Shown here: positions 3,344 through 49,843 of the stretch, in pieces
Layout: each line of letters opens with the position of its first letter
Numbering within the stretch: position 1 is the first letter of the stretch
Assembly: GCA_023133415.1 (NCBI GenBank)
Contig: JAGLWM010000001.1
Coordinates: 13,207 to 77,206, forward strand
DNA length: 64,000 nucleotides
DNA from: Candidatus Pacearchaeota archaeon
Lineage (GTDB): Archaea > Nanobdellota > Nanobdellia > Pacearchaeales > GW2011-AR1
Direction: 5' to 3'
Made by a program: the position numbers and the translations under genes
Notes under the pieces: model-generated
What the model was told of the DNA's origin: nothing
The model's database searches: none
What the model saw: only the letters and a program-made list of their open reading frames with translations

Positions 3344-4480
3344 TTATTTCGTATGAGTTTTATTTATTTTTAATCCGAAATTAATCGCATTGTTAAAAGT
3401 TTTCGCAGAAGTTTTAATATCAACAATTTTTTTTGGAGGAATTTTTTTTATATTTTTTTTCATGTCTAATAATAGTTTCGGATCATTTAATAACTTTTTT
3501 ATGGCTAAATGTATCTCTTTTTTACTTTCAGGATTTATCGTTAATCCCGTTTTGTTTTCGTTAATTAATTCGCATCCTGCGGCAGCATTTGTAGTTATAA
3601 TAGGAACATTATAATAAAGCGATTCATTAATAACAAACCCCCAAGCATCATCCAATGTTGGAAAAACAAAAAAATCAGCCATAGAGTAAAAATTTGCTTT
3701 TTCTATTCCTTCTGCATAATCAAAGAATTTTATGTTATTATTTTCTTTTGCTAATTTTCTCAATTCATTTTTATATTCTCCGTCCCCAACTATTAAAAGT
3801 AAGACATCTTTTTGATTTAATCTATTAAAAGCCTGAATTAAATATTGAATTCCCTTGTCTTTTCTTAAATATCCTAAATGTAAAATAATTTTTTTATTTT
3901 TCCATTTTACAGGTTTCAGAATTTTTTTTAATTCAGGCAATAAGCATTTCGGCATAATTTGAGTACCAACAAAGATAGTTTTTTTATTATTTAAACTTTT
4001 CATAAATTCTTTAGATTTTAAAGAATAACATAAAAATCCTGTTGAAATATTTAGCAATAGTCTTAAATAAATTTTCTTAAGGGATTTTATTACTTTCCCC
4101 ATTTTATTTCTTGATTTATAATTTTCTTCTTTTTCACCTGTCCAAATAAAAATTGGTTTTCTTTTTAATTTTGCAAAAAAACAGCAAGTTAATAATGAAA
4201 GAAAAGATTCCGAGCTTTTTGCAAGAATATAACAATCAAAATTTTGTTTGACTAAATATTTTATAAGACCAAAATTGATAACAAAACCTTTTAAAGAAAT
4301 GTTTTTTAGTATTTTATGTTTAAAAGTATATTTATCTAATGAAGTTGTCCATAATCTATCTTTTGAATTTTCTTTGCAGAAAATAACTTCTAAATTATAT
4401 TTTTTAGAAATTTCTTCAAATAGTGGAAGGCGATAGGGAGCAAGAATATTGTGTAATATTAAAACTTTTTTATTTTTCAT
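3344..4480 (-). CDS. Glycosyltransferase, GT-B fold (GT4-like)
   Basis: 378 aa. The C-terminal half (FVFPTLDDAWGFVINESLYYNVPIITTN) resembles the GT4 EX7E region. Located in the glycosylation cluster. Confidence 0.7.
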   Translation of the reverse strand: MKNKKVLILHNILAPYRLPLFEEISKKYNLEVIFCKENSKDRLWTTSLDKYTFKHKILKNISLKGFVINFGLIKYLVKQNFDCYILAKSSESFLSLLTCCFFAKLKRKPIFIWTGEKEENYKSRNKMGKVIKSLKKIYLRLLLNISTGFLCYSLKSKEFMKSLNNKKTIFVGTQIMPKCLLPELKKILKPVKWKNKKIILHLGYLRKDKGIQYLIQAFNRLNQKDVLLLIVGDGEYKNELRKLAKENNNIKFFDYAEGIEKANFYSMADFFVFPTLDDAWGFVINESLYYNVPIITTNAAAGCELINENKTGLTINPESKKEIHLAIKKLLNDPKLLLDMKKNIKKIPPKKIVDIKTSAKTFNNAINFGLKINKTHTK

Positions 4481-28921: not shown

Positions 28922-29038
28922 GAGCCTGTAGCTCAGCCTGGTCAGAGCGCTAGTCTTATAAGTCTGCAGTCCTTCGGGGTTGTAATTGCTTTCGTCTAAG
29001 AAAGCTAGAGGTCCGGGGTTCAAATCCCCGCAGGCTCA
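28922..29038 (+). tRNA. tRNA-Ile(UAU) with a 42-nt intron after position 37
   Basis: Acceptor GAGCCTG/CAGGCTC. D arm GCTC-AGCCTGGTCA-GAGC. Anticodon stem CTAGT/GCTAG with loop CTTATAA (TAT at 28957-28959). Intron 28961-29002. T arm CGGGG-TTCAAAT-CCCCG. Discriminator A. Confidence 0.75.
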
Positions 29039-29225
29039 TGATTGCTGGGATTGAACCCTCGGGGTTTACTATAAGTATGACTCTATCTTGTGAGCCTCAA
29101 ATCCCCGCAGGCTCATATTTGCTGGGATTGAACCCTCGGGGTTTACTATAAGTATGACTCTATCTTGTGAGCCTCAAATCCCCGCAGGCTCATATTTGCT
29201 GGGATTGAATCCTCGGGGTTTAATA
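29039..29225 (+). repeat. 2.4 tandem 76-77-bp repeats, each ending with a copy of the tRNA-Ile 3' end
   Basis: CAAATCCCCGCAGGCTCAT occurs at 29021-29039 (in the tRNA), 29098-29116 and 29174-29192. Each extra copy is preceded by TTGTGAGCCT, which equals the tRNA 5' leader plus acceptor strand. Confidence 0.9.
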
Positions 29226-29299
29226 ATTTCATATGATTAATTTGTAGATATGCGTTCAAAAAAATAAAAATTTATTCTAACATGCAAGAAAATTTAGGA

Positions 29300-44787: not shown

Positions 44788-45785
44788 AAAGAGGTTTTGA
44801 TTCTGCGAGATATATTGAGGCGCAGACTGCGGAGATTTTGAAGCGAGTTCAAAAATTTGAGAGATTGTATCTTGAATTTGGAGGGAAGTTGACTTATGAT
44901 AATCATGCTTCGCGTGTTTTGCCTGGGTATAAGAAGACGACGAAGGTTGAACTTTTGAAAAAATTGGGGAGGTTGAAAATTATTTATTGTGTTAGTGCGC
45001 AAGATATTCAATCGGAAAAAGTTGTTGGGAGATCTGGGAGGAGTTATGAGGAACAGGTGTTGAAAGATTTGAAGGATATTAAGAAGTTTGGATTGAACGA
45101 TGATATTGTTGTTATAACAAGATTTGATGGCGAAAAAAAGGCTAGGGAGTTTTCTAAAAAATTGAGGTCGTTAGGGAAGAGGGTTTATTTTCATGATGAG
45201 ATTCGGGGCTATGGCGAGAATATTTCGAAAACTGTTGCCGGATATACGAACCAGAAATATATTCCAATCAGGGAAAATTTGATTATTATTACAGGGCCCG
45301 CTGGGGGTTCTGGGAAAATGGCTTTTGCACTTTCTCAGATTTATCATGAGAGGAAGAAAAAAATGTATGCGGCTTTTGCGAAATTTGAAACATTTCCGAT
45401 TTGGAATTTGCCATTAAAACATCCTGTTAATCTTGCTTATGAAGCTGCTACGGCGGATTTGTTGGATGAGAATGTGATTGATCCTTTTCATAAGAAAGCC
45501 TATGGGGTTAGGGCTGTGAACTATAATCGGGATGTTGAGAATTTTGAGATTTTGCAGGCGATTGTTAAGAGAATTACGAATAAGAGATTTCCTTATAGAT
45601 ATAGGTCTCCGACAGATATGGGTGTGAATATGGCGAAACTGGGAATTGTCGACGATGAGGTTTGTCGGGTGGCTGCGATTAGAGAAATAAAACGACGTGA
45701 TAGGGCTTATAAGAAGGAGTTCAAAAAAGGAAGGGAATCTGAAGCGACTGTTGAAAGAATGAAAGATATTTTGCGGAAAATCTAG
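44784..45785 (+). CDS. DUF1846/UPF0371 family protein (shorter than remembered homologues)
   Basis: FDSARYIEAQTAEILKRVQKFERLYLEFGGKLTYDNHASRVLPGY matches the family N-terminus. Confidence 0.6.
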   Translation: MKRGFDSARYIEAQTAEILKRVQKFERLYLEFGGKLTYDNHASRVLPGYKKTTKVELLKKLGRLKIIYCVSAQDIQSEKVVGRSGRSYEEQVLKDLKDIKKFGLNDDIVVITRFDGEKKAREFSKKLRSLGKRVYFHDEIRGYGENISKTVAGYTNQKYIPIRENLIIITGPAGGSGKMAFALSQIYHERKKKMYAAFAKFETFPIWNLPLKHPVNLAYEAATADLLDENVIDPFHKKAYGVRAVNYNRDVENFEILQAIVKRITNKRFPYRYRSPTDMGVNMAKLGIVDDEVCRVAAIREIKRRDRAYKKEFKKGRESEATVERMKDILRKI

Positions 45786-46576
45786 ACTGATTGTTCATCA
45801 TTTACTAATTCTAACTCTTGCTCTAATTCTTCTAATTCTTTCTTGTGAATTTTTAAAGTCATGTGAATGTCTTCGAAGTGTGCGGGTTGTCTTAGAAAAA
45901 TTTTGCCATTGTTTGATAAGTGTAATATTGGAATGAAGGACGCGAGTTTTTCTTCTTTGGCTGGTGCGAGGTGAGAGAATTTCACGTGGTCGTTTCCCTG
46001 GTTTAGGTGGTTGCTGACGACGCCGAAGATTGATTTGATTCGGACTTTTAGTGGGACGAAGTTGTTTTTTGGGAGAACGGTTAGTATATTTTTCCTAGCT
46101 TGTCTGCCTTTGATTTCTTTTCGGATTCGACGATTTTCGGTATTGATTGCGTGATCGAGTGCTTTGATTAGTTCTTGAAGTGTGACTTTTTTGTGACGCG
46201 CCATTGGGGTTCGAGGGCTTAAGATTGGGAGGTCGTTTTCATCGATTTCGATTCTTTCTATTTCGTAGCGTTTTTCGTCTTTTTTGCCGTAGAGTGCGTC
46301 GTTGAGATCTTGGATGTAGGAGTTGATGAGGATTTCGGATTTGAGTCGGAGGAGGAGAGAACAGGCGAGGAGGATTTTGGATGATATGAAGAAATCGGTT
46401 TCTTCGAGTTGTTGGATAGTTTGGACGTATTTGTCTGCTAGGGTTGCGAGGTCGATGTCCCAGGGATCGAGTTGTTCGGTTTTGATGAGATCGTAGATGA
46501 TGGATTGCCAGCCGAGTTCGTTGGATGAAATGAGGTCGAAGAATTGTGCCTGGTTGATTTTATCGCTGCTTTCCAT
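45782..46576 (-). CDS. scpA: Segregation and condensation protein A (kleisin)
   Basis: DPWDIDLATLADKYVQTIQQLEE..FFISSKILLACSLLLRLKSE. Confidence 0.75.
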   Translation of the reverse strand: MESSDKINQAQFFDLISSNELGWQSIIYDLIKTEQLDPWDIDLATLADKYVQTIQQLEETDFFISSKILLACSLLLRLKSEILINSYIQDLNDALYGKKDEKRYEIERIEIDENDLPILSPRTPMARHKKVTLQELIKALDHAINTENRRIRKEIKGRQARKNILTVLPKNNFVPLKVRIKSIFGVVSNHLNQGNDHVKFSHLAPAKEEKLASFIPILHLSNNGKIFLRQPAHFEDIHMTLKIHKKELEELEQELELVNDEQSV

Positions 46577-46663
46577 TGATTTCTTTCTTTTTTAGAAAAA
46601 AAAGAAATTTCTCGCAAGTAGAAAAAACTTCTTTTCCAAAACTATGTTTTGATTTAGTTTCAC
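46577..46663 (-). repeat. Copy B of the ~85-nt double-hairpin repeat, abutting the scpA start codon
   Basis: GATTTCTTTCTTTTTTAGAAAAAAAAGAAATTTCTCGCAAGTAGAAAAAACTTCTTTTCC... differs from copies A and C only in homopolymer lengths. Confidence 0.9.
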
Positions 46664-46782
46664 TGTGTTGTTTGGTTGCCTTGGTTAATAAGTTTTCTCT
46701 AAATTTTTATGTCACTAAAGAATTACAACATACCAAAAACTTTATATAGTATTACTTGTTAGTTATACTATCACCTCTTTTT

Positions 46783-46837
46783 CCCCAGGAGAGAGCGGTA
46801 AGGCAACTTTTTGATCGCTTTGCTGCATCTCCTAGGG
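46783..46837 (+). ncRNA. Candidate small structured RNA (speculative)
   Basis: CCCCAGGAGA pairs with TCTCCTAGGG (9/10) and there is an inner AGCG/CGCT stem. CTTTATATAG box ~35-45 nt upstream. T-rich tract downstream. It lies in a 425-bp gene-free gap. Confidence 0.2.
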
Positions 46838-47001
46838 TTTATAATTTTACAGAGTAAAATTCTAAACCTGATTCGAAGTTTCTTTGAAAATTCTCATCGG
46901 AAATTTCCTAAAGAAAATTTGGGGGTTGTCTTGCGCAGACGGCTGATGTGGTTGTTATTTTGACTTGGGATAAATTATTGAAGCTTAGGGCAAAATAAGG
47001 A

Positions 47002-47715
47002 TTAAATTGAGTTCCACATAAATTCAAAATAATTCTTATAACTTTCATGAAGTAATTTGTCTGTTATTACAAGAACATATATGTTTTCTTTTTGTAAAGA
47101 TTGAATAGCAACTTTGTCGTTGTATAAAATAGTTGTAACCTTTGCCGTATATTTTTGAGGAAGATATTTTATTTTTACTTTTTTCTTAGGAAGTGATTTA
47201 AGTAATTTTCTTGCATTCTCATTGGCTAAATATCTTGCAGTTATTCCTGCCTTTTCATACCTTTTTATAAAATGTGGAAATTCAAATCTTAAAATTTCAA
47301 AAGCCATCCCTGTTACTCCAAAAGCTAAAACTTCTGAAACATTATTCATAATGTCTTGGTAGAATGTTTTTATTCCTTCTTTTCCTTCGAAAACTTCTAT
47401 TTTAAATGGTTCAATAGATTGATGTAATTCTTTAAGTTTTGGCAGGATTGATTCAATTTTTGTTTTTTTTGAATTAAGAATTTCTATAAATTTTTTAGGG
47501 GAAGCAGATTGATAATATCGTTTTGAATTTTTTAATACATAACTTGCTAAACCCAATCTTATTAGATTCTCTAATTCTAAATATGTGGTCGTTCTATTTA
47601 TTTTAGTTAATTTTGCTAATTTCGAGGCAGTGCATGATTTTTCTTTAAGTAAGGCTAAATAAATTTTTGATTCTCTTGCATTAAGTCCAAATTCCTCAAG
47701 TATTTCTTGTTCCAT
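47002..47715 (-). CDS. TrmB family transcriptional regulator (paralogue of 20605..21324)
   Basis: FGLNARESKIYLALLKEKSCTASKLAKLTKINRTTTYLELENLIRLGL and the same domain layout. Confidence 0.75.
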   Translation of the reverse strand: MEQEILEEFGLNARESKIYLALLKEKSCTASKLAKLTKINRTTTYLELENLIRLGLASYVLKNSKRYYQSASPKKFIEILNSKKTKIESILPKLKELHQSIEPFKIEVFEGKEGIKTFYQDIMNNVSEVLAFGVTGMAFEILRFEFPHFIKRYEKAGITARYLANENARKLLKSLPKKKVKIKYLPQKYTAKVTTILYNDKVAIQSLQKENIYVLVITDKLLHESYKNYFEFMWNSI

Positions 47716-47797
47716 ATTCTAATAAATATTTTATCTATTTAAAAGTTGTTATTAAATGACAACATATATTTAATTATTTTTCTATTCTATTATTTTT

Positions 47798-48256
47798 ATG
47801 AGAATTATAGAGGATTGTCTTAATGAATTAAAATTAATTGGAGCTCCAAGACCGTATTATCTATTTGGAAAATCCAAGATTTATAATAAGAATGGAGAAG
47901 ACAAAGTAATCGCAAATGCAATGTTTCCTTCCTTTGAACCTTCAATCGGAGATAGATGGAATTCTCGTACACCTCATGTTAATCTATCAAATGCTTATTT
48001 TGCATTATGGAATACAGTCCATTTACTTGGGAATGAAATTGGGTTTTATGATCCTTTGAGTACAAAAGGAAATTATAAGCCAATTAAACTTCTGCCTGCT
48101 GATAAAAATATTCAACTTGAGATGATGATAAAAGATATACGACCTAGTCAAAAGATGGAAGGTTATGATTTAGAAGGAAAGTTTATGGGTAAATTTCTTA
48201 TTAATGATGAACTTTATCTTGTTCTCAGCGGAAAGGGTATCGGAAAAAGTAGATAG
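47798..48256 (+). CDS. Hypothetical protein
   Basis: 152-aa ORF. No motif recognised. Confidence 0.4.
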   Translation: MRIIEDCLNELKLIGAPRPYYLFGKSKIYNKNGEDKVIANAMFPSFEPSIGDRWNSRTPHVNLSNAYFALWNTVHLLGNEIGFYDPLSTKGNYKPIKLLPADKNIQLEMMIKDIRPSQKMEGYDLEGKFMGKFLINDELYLVLSGKGIGKSR

Positions 48257-48267
48257 TATACATATAA

Positions 48268-48504
48268 TTATTTTTTGGCTTCTAGTTTTGGTTCGACTTC
48301 TTTTTTCTCGAATTCTGTGAAGTGACATTTTCCACAATATGCTCTTCCTTGTCCAACGGACAAGAAAACTCCTGGTCCGCATCTTGGGCAGCTTCGAGCT
48401 TTCTTTGTGATTTTGTCGCCTTCAATTGTATATTTTTTGTATTTTACAGAAGTCGGCTTATTGACGTGTTTTTTCTTTCCTTTGATTTTGGATTTGATGG
48501 CCAT
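48268..48504 (-). CDS. rps27ae: Ribosomal protein eS31 (S27ae)
   Basis: Zinc ribbon CPRCGPGVFL...YCGKCH in a small basic protein. Confidence 0.8.
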   Translation of the reverse strand: MAIKSKIKGKKKHVNKPTSVKYKKYTIEGDKITKKARSCPRCGPGVFLSVGQGRAYCGKCHFTEFEKKEVEPKLEAKK

Positions 48505-48590
48505 GATTTCTTTCTTTTTAGAAAAAAGAAATTTCTCGCAAGTAGAAAAACTTCTTTTCCAGAGCTACGCTCTGATTTATTTCTATTCTG
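48505..48590 (-). repeat. Copy C of the ~85-nt double-hairpin repeat, filling the rps24e-rps27ae spacer
   Basis: It spans from the rps27ae ATG to the rps24e stop codon (48583-48585). Confidence 0.9.
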
Positions 48591-48972
48591 ATTTTACCTC
48601 TTCTTTAGTTTCTTCGGTTTTTTCTTCTGTGGCTTCGACAGCTGTCTTTGCGGCTTCAGCTTCTTCGGCGGCTTTTTTCTTTGTTTCTTCTTTGGCTGTT
48701 TTTTTCTCGGCTTCTAATTTTTTTCTCACTTTTTGTGGAATTGTTTCTATTTTTTCTCTTGCTTCTAGGCTATCATATACAACTACTTCTGTTAGGAATT
48801 TTTGTCGTCCGAAGTTTGTGTTGATTTTTTTTATTATTGTTAACGTCTCGTCCTTTCCTAATGCGGAGATTACTTCTGATGAGTTTGGAGTGGCTTCGGA
48901 AGAGATTTCAACGACTAATTCTTCTCTCTGTAAAAATGGGTTTTTTTCTTGTTTGATTATTTTTATTTTCAT
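48583..48972 (-). CDS. rps24e: Ribosomal protein eS24 with an E/K/A-rich C-terminal extension
   Basis: MKIKIIKQEKNPFLQREELVVEISSEATP... The start is set at ATG 48972, which overlaps the spt4 stop as ATGA. Confidence 0.75.
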   Translation of the reverse strand: MKIKIIKQEKNPFLQREELVVEISSEATPNSSEVISALGKDETLTIIKKINTNFGRQKFLTEVVVYDSLEAREKIETIPQKVRKKLEAEKKTAKEETKKKAAEEAEAAKTAVEATEEKTEETKEEVKSE

Positions 48973-49169
48973 TTTGACTTTATAGCGAATTCGCCTTCTG
49001 TATTTATTTTCATATTTTCTGCCAGTTCGGATTTTTCTGCGTTGAAGATATGGATTCGACCTTTGAAGGATTCGCTGGCTGGTGTTTCTCCACACTTAGG
49101 ACATTTGTCTCCAAAGTAGATTGCTTTACAATTTAAACATGATTTTTCTTTATTTGCTTTTGCTGCCAT
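48969..49169 (-). CDS. spt4: Transcription elongation factor Spt4 / RpoE''
   Basis: CLNCKAIYFGDKCPKCG zinc ribbon. 66 aa. Downstream of rpoE'. Confidence 0.75.
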   Translation of the reverse strand: MAAKANKEKSCLNCKAIYFGDKCPKCGETPASESFKGRIHIFNAEKSELAENMKINTEGEFAIKSK

Positions 49170-49256
49170 TATTTAGACTCTTTCTCTTTAGAAAAGAGAA
49201 ATTCCCTCGAAGTAGAGAAACTTAGATTCCAAGACTTCGTTTTGATTTAATTTCAT
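49170..49256 (-). repeat. Copy D (diverged) of the ~85-nt repeat, filling the rpoE'-spt4 spacer
   Basis: TTTCTCTTT-AG-AAAAGAGAAA forms a perfect 9-bp hairpin. About 75% similar to copies A-C. Its distal end overlaps the rpoE' stop codon. Confidence 0.8.
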
Positions 49257-49843
49257 TTTTTCACCTTCTTGGCTTCGATTGCTATAGTTTGTTTTGCTTC
49301 GGCTTCAGTTTTATCTTTTTCTGCCTTTACCCAATCTAGCTTTCCTAGACCTGGTTGTCTCATTGTTAGACCTATTTTTGGTTCTTCGCCTTTGTATGAG
49401 ATTGCTACGATTCGTGCTATGCATTTGTCCCCTTGCACTAAATTCTTCTTGCCGTCTTTTCCTGATAGGACGCCTGTGTCTGAAAATGATACGAAGTCGT
49501 CCATTGTTTGGGAAATGTGAATCATGCCTCGGATTGGACCCATTGATATAAAAGCTCCGAAGTTTGTGATTTCTTCAATTTGGCCGTAAACTAATTCTTG
49601 GAGTTCGGGTTTGAATATGACTAGTTTGAATGTTGATTCATAATATGCTGCTCCGTCGCCTGGGATTATGATTCCCTCTTTTACATCTTTGACGTTGAGA
49701 ACTGTGACTACTGTGCCAATATCTTTGTCTTGGAAACCTGAATAGGACTCTTCTAGTTGTGTTCGAACTGCTGCATCTGTATCCATCCCGAATTTGTTCG
49801 GTTCTACTCTTACATAGTCTGTTACTAAAACTTCGTAAAACAT
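49253..49843 (-). CDS. rpoE: DNA-directed RNA polymerase subunit E' (Rpo7)
   Basis: Rpb7-like N-terminal domain plus an S1 domain (GQIEEITNFGAFISMGPIRGMIHISQ). Confidence 0.8.
   Translation of the reverse strand: MFYEVLVTDYVRVEPNKFGMDTDAAVRTQLEESYSGFQDKDIGTVVTVLNVKDVKEGIIIPGDGAAYYESTFKLVIFKPELQELVYGQIEEITNFGAFISMGPIRGMIHISQTMDDFVSFSDTGVLSGKDGKKNLVQGDKCIARIVAISYKGEEPKIGLTMRQPGLGKLDWVKAEKDKTEAEAKQTIAIEAKKVKK

Follow-up and report, generated by a model that had tools for sequence, protein, structure and literature searches.

A repeated, structured ~85-nt element at start codons of a Pacearchaeota genome and its possible role as a mobile triple-helical leader

Copies of the element, their host genes and the wider family

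The DNA analysed (the window) is a stretch of 64,000 nucleotides (nt) from a Candidatus Pacearchaeota archaeon (assembly GCA_023133415.1, contig JAGLWM010000001.1, positions 13,207 to 77,206, forward strand). Four copies of an ~85-nt element were located in this 64-kb window by repeat search at 12974, 46581, 48505 and 49175, and are referred to as copies A, B, C and D, respectively (Table 1). All are on the minus strand. The flanking genes were assigned by Pfam to ScpA, S27ae, S24e, Spt4 and RpoE'. As claimed in a first-pass annotation made from the sequence alone, copies B, C and D precede the ATG codons of scpA, rps27ae and spt4; their tails end 1, 0 and 5 nt before the start codon, respectively. 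The 5' edges of copies C and D overlap the stop codons of the upstream genes; for copy C this is the rps24e TAG (48585-48583), and an ATA is aligned at the 5' codon column. The stop of spt4 overlaps the start of rps24e (ATGA) with no element between them. Placement upstream of a start codon did not extend to the fourth copy, A, which lies in frame inside the gene for Elp3. Because residues 325-368 of this Elp3 align to just 14 residues of the solved archaeal enzyme, copy A was taken as an insertion of 90 nt (30 amino acids).

The degenerate core TCTACTTNNNNGNAATTTCTNTTTT matched four times in the window, always on the minus strand, as compared with 0.30 matches expected from shuffles, and four or more matches were reached in 0 of 100 shuffles. 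With a covariance model, copies C, D, B and A scored 107.7, 102, 94 and 70.6 bits, and the next match in the window scored 16.5 bits (E 0.26). The repeat is thus real and beyond chance.

The family was then delimited by two scans. An exact pattern, applied to one genome per species, matched 66 genome loci, ~50 of them from metagenome-assembled genomes (MAGs) of Woesearchaeota, Pacearchaeota or 'Nanoarchaeota'; the bacterial matches were unlike the element outside the pattern itself. A pattern that left the putative interacting strands free was applied to metagenomes and matched 106 DNA stretches, and 48 covariance-model matches were obtained among the 80 listed loci searched. Pooling and de-replication gave the set of 101 copies used below, and 95 distinct copies were used for pair counting. 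At least 14 copies were present in one MAG (CAYOTW), many at contig ends and some in tandem. Besides the main subfamily (type 1), type-2 and type-3 relatives occurred in both orientations, either beside 16S rRNA genes (antisense) or abutting stop codons of the opposite strand. Four pattern matches were found on IMG/VR contigs, none of which fitted the covariance model. An Rfam 15 scan of the whole window returned four tRNAs only at gathering score, a permissive scan (E <= 10) over 48450-49300 returned nothing meaningful and no riboswitch match, and literature searches gave no description of such an element in DPANN archaea, nor of archaeal triple helices. Copies A to D are members of a family of ~85-nt structured copy-and-paste elements, spread across DPANN (Woese-, Pace- and Nanoarchaeota MAGs), of which we know no earlier description.

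A copy was scored as start-adjacent when an open reading frame (ORF) of at least 40 codons started -1 to +6 nt from the last paired base of the element. By this definition, from which the sense orientation of the start-adjacent copies follows, the informative figure is that 73 of the 101 copies are start-adjacent, versus 6.2% of random positions in the same DNA (37 of 61 copies in an earlier, smaller set). The distance to the ORF start was 0 nt in 35 copies and 1 nt in 32. The covariance-model scan thus gave the opposite of the positional indifference that the first-pass annotation had named as the mark of a plain dispersed repeat. Among the 28 non-adjacent copies, several are followed by the ATG of a tandem copy or by that of a truncated ORF. 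The 72 distinct downstream proteins belong mostly to the transcription and translation machinery (S27ae, Spt5, L11, S3Ae, Spt4, RpoP-like, DRG GTPase, aEF-1beta, FttA/aCPSF1, S24e, aIF2alpha, SRP54, TruD, GatE and ThrRS), with a minority of other genes (scpA, signal-peptide peptidase, agmatinase-like and others), and the genes concerned recur from one MAG to another. The type-1 subfamily therefore has the attributes of a cis-acting leader, namely sense orientation, a fixed position relative to the start codon, covarying structure (see below) and a recurrent gene set.

Copies C and D were each identical at 82 of 83 positions between the window and a syntenic relative of a different species (locus L060); the flanking coding sequences (CDS) of the two were 63-77% identical, and their third codon positions 46-57%. 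Copy C was almost unchanged in a third relative (L113). The copies within the window are only 78-87% alike, non-orthologous copies average 83.5% identity family-wide, and just 0.4% of non-orthologous pairs reach an identity of at least 98%; homogenisation is thus not the cause of the conservation, which is specific to the individual copy. Over 39 orthologous pairs the mean identity of the element was 0.879 and the mean synonymous identity 0.545. Copy-specific purifying selection on the elements, against a background of saturated synonymous sites, was thus shown.

Secondary structure and the parallel third strand

RNAalifold and pair counting were applied to the sense strand and three helices (P1, P2b and P2a) were supported. 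Paired cells amounted to 98.4%, versus 89.9 +/- 0.3 in shuffles, and compensatory cells to 131, versus 29 in shuffles and 5-16 when the partners were slid, which bears out the earlier suggestion that structure is under selection. P1 is a 6-bp 5' hairpin (CAAAAC-NNN-GUUUUG) with double-sided changes at all six pairs among the 95 distinct copies. P2b, a 9-bp A/U hairpin, is 100% paired across copies, and 73 distinct copies have UA as pair 72/85, the other 22 having CG. P2a is a closing helix of two to three covarying pairs in which 61-62(63), just 5' of P2b, pair with the last bases of the element, 94(95)-96; the pair 61-96 is formed in 100 of the 101 copies (GC 72, AU 16, UA 8, GU 4) and 62-95 in 97 (AU 58, GC 38). 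P2a and P2b are separated by a 3x3 internal loop (NAA/GAN), the outer positions of which covary like-with-like (A.A in 63 copies, G.G in 29), and the conserved structure leaves the 5' junction unpaired. G.U was in excess of A.C (20 to 7; at 63-94, 30 to 0), a bias in favour of a fold formed by the downstream gene's sense strand.

Two hairpins had been described in the first-pass annotation. The A/U hairpin is strongly supported, and the perfect stem noted for copy D results from a compensatory T-A to C-G change. The other, UUUCU-ACUUGCG-AGAAA, in which the pyrimidine strand S1 would pair with 62-66, can form in most copies; it showed zero covariation, is broken in all 22 C-variants, copy D included, and was not retained. 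That description also lacked the 5' hairpin, the covarying closing helix, the third strand, the 5' start codon with its short ORF, the in-frame position of the copy in Elp3, and the DPANN-wide spread. Three further candidates were rejected. An antiparallel helix between S1 and the 3' arm of P2b (S4) had zero covariation and is broken in the same 22 C-variant sequences. An archaeal bulge-helix-bulge (BHB) intron was discarded, since AUGGAAUUAAAU at the 5' junction lacks complementarity to GAAAUCAUG at the 3' junction and no BHB could be drawn. A small-RNA gene of its own, with its end in the T-run of S3 (the 5' arm of P2b), is incompatible with the covariation between S3 and S4.

S1 (UUUYUCU, 5' of the ACUU loop) is a mirror repeat, not a direct repeat, of S3 (UUUCUYUUU). 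When S1 is read 5' to 3', its U and C residues face A and G, respectively, in a parallel match to the purine arm S4 (AAARAGAAA). In established triplex chemistry, a third strand of pyrimidines runs in the direction of the purine strand that it contacts through U.A-U and C+.G-C, and the match is therefore the signature expected of a major-groove triple helix of ~7 layers. The parallel register was compatible in 101 of 101 copies over the five layers next to the C.G anchor (shuffles 67.8 +/- 3.3; 0 of 2000 reached 101). Of the 101 copies, 80 have (T,T,A) at columns 51/72/85 and the other 21 have (C,C,G), without intermediates and on at least eight guide/tail backgrounds; copy D carries the C-variant triple. 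The lengths of S1, S3 and S4 vary together (-1, 0, +1) and were equal in 82 of 99 copies, versus 61.9 +/- 3.1; copy B is a +1 variant in all three strands. In a dedicated covariation count, the parallel S1-S4 alignment gave 22 double-sided changes, a value reached by 0 of 500 shuffles. As read from the alignment, a parallel third strand of this kind implies a putative U.A-U/C+.G-C triple helix.

Table 1. Copies of the element in the window, their structural parts and the genes that carry them
Feature	Position	Strand	Remarks
Copy A	12973-13062	-	90-nt in-frame Elp3 insertion, translation ESSYMRSFHGSPKQVFLLARNFFFLKRKKS
Copy A, 5' hairpin	13048-13029	-	type 2, UUCCAC loop
Copy A, S1	13019-13013	-	
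Copy A, S3	13000-12992	-	
Copy A, S4	12988-12980	-	
Copy A, tail	12976-12974	-	AUC
Elp3 (radical SAM + GNAT)	12520-14076	-	host of copy A; Pfam; PDB Elp3 matches E 1e-119
Copy B	46577-46663	-	first codon GTG 46663-46661; TATA-like TTATTAA ~28 nt upstream
Copy B, P1	46651-46637	-	
Copy B, S1	46627-46620	-	UUUUUUCU (+1 U)
Copy B, P2a	46613-46611 with 46580-46578	-	GAG with AUC
Copy B, S3	46607-46598	-	+1 U
Copy B, S4	46593-46584	-	+1 A
Copy B, 3' side	46578-46576	-	tail ends 46578; single A (46577); scpA AUG at 46576
scpA	45782-46576	-	downstream of copy B; Pfam SMC_ScpA
Copy C	48505-48585	-	fills the gap from the rps24e stop to the base preceding the rps27ae ATG at 48504
Copy C, P1	48560-48574	-	CAGAGC-GUA-GCUCUG; two compensatory changes relative to the family consensus CAAAAC/GUUUUG
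Copy C, S1	48544-48550	-	UUUUUCU pyrimidine strand; proposed Hoogsteen third strand parallel to S4
Copy C, P2a 5' strand	48535-48537	-	GAG; pairs with terminal AUC 48507-48505
Copy C, P2b	48511-48531	-	S3 UUUCUUUUU 48531-48523; loop UCU 48522-48520; S4 AAAAAGAAA 48519-48511
Copy C, P2a 3' strand	48505-48507	-	AUC; final three bases of the element, directly 5' of the rps27ae AUG
rps27ae	48268-48504	-	downstream of copy C; Pfam Ribosomal_S27
Copy D	49170-49256	-	first codon ATG 49256-49254 overlapping the rpoE' stop TGA 49255-49253 (ATGA)
Copy D, P1	49244-49230	-	
Copy D, S1	49220-49214	-	UUUCUCU
Copy D, P2a	49207-49205 with 49177-49175	-	AGG with UCU
Copy D, P2b	49201-49181	-	S3 49201-49193; loop 49192-49190; S4 49189-49181
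Copy D, 3' side	49175-49169	-	tail ends 49175; spacer AAAUA 49174-49170; spt4 AUG at 49169
spt4	48969-49169	-	downstream of copy D; Pfam Spt4

Leaderless background, short reading frame and mobility

TATA-like hexamers were counted upstream of the ATG codons of ordinary window ORFs of at least 100 amino acids; 54 matches fell at -30 to -27, versus 0-6 in each other 4-nt bin. The genome is almost entirely leaderless, as the first-pass annotation had supposed, and a leader such as this element is exceptional in it. In element-bearing genes, the TATA geometry fits the first codon of the element rather than the real ATG. A start codon occupies one fixed 5' column in 63 of 76 type-1 copies (83%; ATG 53, GTG 4, TTG 6), as compared with ~20% in a control scan. 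In 19 of these 63 the codon overlaps the stop of an upstream ORF (ATGA, TAATG or GTGA), and 27 of the other 44 have a TATA-like box at -38 to -18. The short ORF opened by this codon has 22-23 codons in 31 copies, in which it ends at a UAA in the hairpin loop (in copy C the terminating UAA straddles the junction of the P2b loop and S4), and 28-29 codons in 17; the longer ones that were examined individually stop at or over the main ATG. A conserved peptide as the product was rejected, since the +1 variants read the short ORF in another frame than the standard copies do, and a stop may fall at codon 12. An internal promoter was likewise rejected: the A/T-rich hairpin lies ~16 nt from the AUG, and the TATA boxes of this genome at -30 to -27. 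When public assemblies were searched for transcript ends, the exact S27ae was found on only one metagenomic contig.

No element occupies the Elp3 site of copy A in the syntenic relative or in most homologues, and several other Elp3 genes are filled at or near the same spot, some with extra partial copies and some with an ~18-nt duplicated flank. Downstream of the Elp3 insertions, at a distance of 2-5 nt, there is an internal ATG that is out of frame. Between spt4 and rps24e, the window and L060 have a plain ATGA overlap, and L113 carries a copy there that does not differ from the one next to it at spt4; at the position of copy D, L113 has a different subtype from that of the window. In L113 (8930-9810), spt4, rps24e and rps27ae are each preceded by a copy, two of which are identical from ATTAAATC on. 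The empty and filled sites among relatives show that the element moves.

An earlier comparison with MITEs (miniature inverted-repeat transposable elements) therefore stands as regards multiple copies and filled or empty sites, and fails as regards terminal inverted repeats: none were found by repeat search or in the alignments, where inverted repeats were limited to the internal hairpins. Most type-1 copies have an ATG on either side. Beyond it the two flanks are weakly alike (93 versus 83 +/- 6 matches, p about 0.07), and the bases following the 5' and the 3' ATG matched, by eye, in 10 of 19 copies, which is the chance level; a target-site duplication extending past the ATG did not reach significance. 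In 83% of type-1 copies an NTG borders the element on the left, and the sequence before this NTG is not conserved; the context AATGAAAT is a candidate target motif. A tblastn search of 1.24 Mb of flanking DNA and the window for a Y1 transposase, with an IS200 TnpA query, gave a best E of 0.54. No transposase was present among the 25 top Pfam families listed, of 64, near the copies of the high-copy MAG, and no cognate autonomous element sharing the ends was seen in the 1.24 Mb of flanks or near the high-copy loci.

Unlike start-adjacent copies, intragenic copies in L069 (~4050-4250, Elp3) and L002 (3860-3990) are flanked by imperfect target duplications of 18-26 nt, which comprise D(I/V)EEKIR in the Elp3 of L069 and the last ~9 codons of the gene in L002.

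Interpretation, related systems and further repeats

The explanation that we consider best, and that we would accept or doubt in roughly equal measure, is a mobile cassette that forms a structured 5' leader and passes ribosomes on to the start codon of the gene proper. The element would be inserted at the start codons of leaderless genes and transcribed as an mRNA leader. Ribosomes would engage only a 5'-terminal AUG, or would arrive by termination-reinitiation from the upstream gene. Translation would start at the first codon of the element, and a relay ORF of ~22 codons would be read through the triplex. Ribosomes would terminate in the loop of P2b, 13 nt short of the real AUG, or over the AUG itself (UAAUG/AUGA), and would reinitiate at that AUG. 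The folded triplex hairpin abutting the AUG would otherwise keep it closed, and would probably stabilise the RNA. Translation of genes that belong mainly to the transcription and translation machinery would so become dependent on the cassette and tunable, and this dependence would place every part of the cassette under purifying selection. Copies in coding regions, such as copy A in Elp3, would survive only in frame and simply be read through. The broader proposal of a new archaeal RNA class, a mobile 'start-codon cassette' inserting at the starts of leaderless genes, with a relay ORF and a long U.A-U/C+.G-C triplex next to the real AUG, and long retained as the common leader of a regulon of transcription and translation genes across DPANN, is put forward more tentatively, and we lean slightly against it.

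Several points weigh against this explanation. Transcription from the first codon and translation of the relay ORF we infer from geometry only. A 5' start codon is missing from copy C and from the orthologous copies of L060 and L113, which have ATA or TAG in its place, yet this is the best-conserved copy; ribosomes terminating at rps24e would therefore need to reinitiate ~80 nt downstream. Some copies have an in-frame TAG at codon 12, so that the length of the relay ORF is not strictly kept. The contexts of types 2 and 3 and their antisense orientation mean that a leader role cannot hold family-wide. The triple-helix signal consists of one substitution type and two length variants, and since the strands lie within ~45 nt and family members copy each other, the independent events are few and the copy counts are inflated. 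The complementary strand could in principle form a purine-motif triplex. Folding by minimum free energy (MFE) was unimpressive (z -1.3 to -2.6) and competing helices were predicted, for which reasons it was not used as evidence.

The first-pass annotation had named a translational operator, an RNA-processing site and a MITE-like element as options. The main rival is RNA punctuation, in which an endonuclease would cut at the 3' edge of the element to leave a leaderless mRNA, and the triple helix would cap and protect the 3' end of the upstream fragment, much as a triple helix caps MALAT1 at its 3' end. The 67 of 101 copies that end 0-1 nt before the AUG would, after such a cut, leave a leader length that leaderless translation tolerates, in a leaderless genome, and the triplex has its A-rich strand close to the element's 3' end. 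Processing accounts for copy C better, as a span from stop to start that needs no 5' start codon, and L113 has a copy before each of three consecutive small genes. It leaves unexplained the 5'-edge start codon (83% of type-1 copies) and the stop of the short ORF beside the main AUG, and the in-frame, stop-free Elp3 copies imply read-through rather than cleavage. No cleavage motif is conserved beyond P2a, and no BHB motif can be drawn across the junctions, which are not complementary; we know of no archaeal nuclease with the specificity needed. On balance processing is considered unlikely.

A somewhat weaker alternative is the operator of a regulon, in which the fold would bind a trans-acting protein or a small ligand, or would act as a triplex switch sensitive to pH, Mg or polyamines, and so co-regulate machinery genes. 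Functional parallels would be r-protein leaders, 5'TOP mRNAs and the SAM-II and preQ1-II riboswitches, which contain triplexes and lie on start sites. The downstream genes, mostly for ribosomal proteins, RNA polymerase subunits, Spt4/5 and translation factors and recurring across MAGs, agree with this, and the 83.5% identity between non-orthologous copies suggests a conserved partner contacting most of the element. C+.G-C triples are intrinsically pH-sensitive, and the alternative pairing of S1 with 62-66, possible in most copies, offers the potential for a switch, although this helix is without covariation. The gene set also includes scpA, signal-peptide peptidase, agmatinase-like and other genes, no Rfam riboswitch matched at E <= 10, and neither insertion polymorphism nor in-frame CDS copies are expected of a dedicated operator. 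An operator is compatible with a cassette that relays ribosomes and with processing, and is not exclusive of either; as the principal explanation it is improbable.

A purely selfish DNA repeat was given slightly less weight again. The element would then be MITE-like, resemble the Rickettsia palindromic elements (RPEs), or belong with the palindrome-associated transposable elements (PATEs) of IS200/IS605 and the repetitive extragenic palindromes (REPs); its hairpins, and the pairing of bases 5' of the hairpin with its terminal bases, would serve a single-stranded-DNA transposase, and its position at starts would reflect target preference and survival. Filled and empty sites, the MAG with many copies at contig ends and in tandem, the type-2 and type-3 subfamilies in both orientations, the in-frame insertions in proteins, as in Rickettsia RPEs, and the position of the Elp3 insertions 2-5 nt upstream of an out-of-frame ATG all speak for it, and the pairs 61-63/94-96 resemble the G_R/C_R geometry of IS608 right ends. 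This guide-type pairing was found with four pair types, and is equally expected of an RNA closing helix. A copy-specific orthologous conservation of 99% against saturated synonymous sites is unlike decaying selfish DNA, and the start-adjacent fraction (73 of 101 copies versus 6.2% at random) is likewise at odds with it. Terminal inverted repeats, a consistent target-site duplication beyond the ATG, a Y1 transposase in the 1.24 Mb of flanks, a transposase among the listed top families near high-copy loci, and copies on viral contigs were not found. A plain dispersed repeat or chance similarity of A/T-rich intergenic DNA, without structure or positional meaning, was suggested by the low-complexity A/T-rich sequence and the modest MFE z-scores, and is refuted for practical purposes by the match counts (4 versus 0.3), the scores (70-108 versus 16 bits), the covariation controls and the position (72% versus 6%).

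The element was also compared with known systems. Triple-helix classes, namely the expression and nuclear retention element (ENE) of the Kaposi's sarcoma-associated herpesvirus (KSHV) PAN RNA, the 3' ends of MALAT1 and MEN-beta, and the double ENEs of plant and fungal transposons, are listed in a 2026 review (PMC13541005). As in these, two U-rich strands would clamp one A-rich strand near the 3' end of the module, a U.A-U run would be interrupted by C+.G-C, the Hoogsteen strand would be parallel to the purine strand, and there is a tie to mobile-element RNAs. An ENE takes up a poly(A) or A-rich tail from the 3' side into a U-rich internal loop. Here the two Watson-Crick strands make up a simple hairpin, with the third strand supplied by sequence 5' of it; the element moreover would lie at an mRNA 5' end against a start codon, is archaeal, and has no sequence or Rfam relationship to the ENE. 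Short 5'-leader folds with a pyrimidine strand in the major groove (U.A-U), located on the translation start region, are also found in the SAM-II, SAM-V and preQ1-II riboswitches. The element differs from these in that it is not an H-type pseudoknot as drawn, has no Rfam match and no association with metabolic genes, and is multi-copy and mobile.

With RPEs and with the Correia, ERIC, BOX and RUP repeats the element shares a length of ~100 nt, structure, multiple polymorphic copies, and occurrence both between genes and in frame within proteins (here Elp3). Some RPE/MITE-like bacterial repeats influence the expression of neighbouring genes. The element differs from them in lacking terminal inverted repeats and a regular target duplication, in the sense placement of its main subfamily 0-1 nt before starts, in copy-specific purifying selection and in triple-strand covariation. 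PATEs of IS200/IS605 and REP/REPIN sequences (Y1/HUH) have similar subterminal hairpins, strand specificity and, for REPINs, long vertical persistence with conservation; as in these, the bases 5' of the hairpin foot covary with the element end in a guide/cleavage-like manner. In contrast, no Y1 or RAYT gene was seen near element copies, there is no fixed left target of 4-5 nt besides the ATG, and the position relative to translation signals and the third-strand signal have no counterpart there.

For the relay ORF, a precedent is offered by mycobacteria, where leaderless upstream ORFs coupled to downstream genes are described in two studies (PMC4633059, PMC11260477); there too a 5'-terminal start codon opens a short ORF that terminates beside the main AUG and would so pass on ribosomes. 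These ORFs are gene-specific and do not form a repeated, structured, mobile cassette. Mitochondrial tRNA punctuation is the analogy for processing, in that a structured RNA exactly fills the gap between leaderlessly translated genes; the element has no tRNA-like fold (no tRNA or Rfam call), and cleavage is only putative here. We know of no archaeal example of a leader designed for short-ORF termination-reinitiation. The ingredients thus have precedents (MITE/RPE-like repeats, leaderless upstream ORFs and triple-helix RNAs), and their combination was absent from Rfam and from the literature searched. To our knowledge, a repeated mobile triple-helix leader placed with nucleotide precision on the starts of archaeal machinery genes has no prior description.

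Few RNAs, of eukaryotic, viral or riboswitch origin, are known to contain long triple helices of the major-groove type. If the broader proposal is correct, the element would be the earliest known case of a long natural triplex of the pyrimidine motif in mRNAs of archaea, and likewise of a repeated module for translation control in a genome that is leaderless. If the cassette explanation is correct, a portable module would solve, or exploit, the expression of leadered and intra-operon genes in leaderless translators. With three-way covariation across more than 100 archaeal sequences, a triplex of seven layers would count as comparative proof of unusual clarity, and it would offer structural work a new scaffold. 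The line between selfish repeat and regulatory element would be blurred, with DPANN genomes as a test case for addictive or domesticated mobile RNA modules, and annotation of DPANN MAGs should then allow for a short upstream ORF and an ~85-nt leader at element-bearing genes.

Minor observations were made on relatives of the element and on the surrounding DNA. In four MAGs (L057 1-1600, L042 498-1375, L031 4233-5187 and L023 1-516) copies lie 10-370 nt upstream of a 16S rRNA gene, in divergent (antisense) orientation, and are preceded by a conserved TTTTTTAAGAC box. A mini-module of ~30 nt, GCCTCAaCAGAGGTAcaCCAcATGGGtGCG, and other small hairpins occur in various loops of the element in L005 (6731-6857), L057 (1192-1313) and L048 (5215-5400), and resemble expansion segments or nested insertions. 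The interval that separates copies B and C (47002-48256) carries a TrmB-family regulator (minus strand) and a 152-amino-acid ORF without a Pfam match (plus strand). The sequence downstream of rps27ae in L060 is unrelated to that of the window.

A second, G/T-rich repeat family (GGGTCGGGAGTCG-like, plus strand) is present at 6-37, 12707-12738, 13994-14025, 16378-16465 and 16871-16902 of the window. Two of its copies lie inside the Elp3 CDS and encode the low-complexity inserts LPIPDSRLTTPS and ITPTPDSQLTTHDL; Elp3 homologues have analogous inserts at both sites and at a third, after CPSF(N/G), so that the family looks like another in-frame intragenic repeat insertion. Lastly, a 117-nt Rfam tRNA (28922-29038) presumably contains an intron, and its 3' part includes the start of a tandem array of three 77-nt units (29020-29250); ARAGORN made no tRNA call at 28922-29250. 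The units may be repeated tRNA 3' halves, as left by integrating elements.

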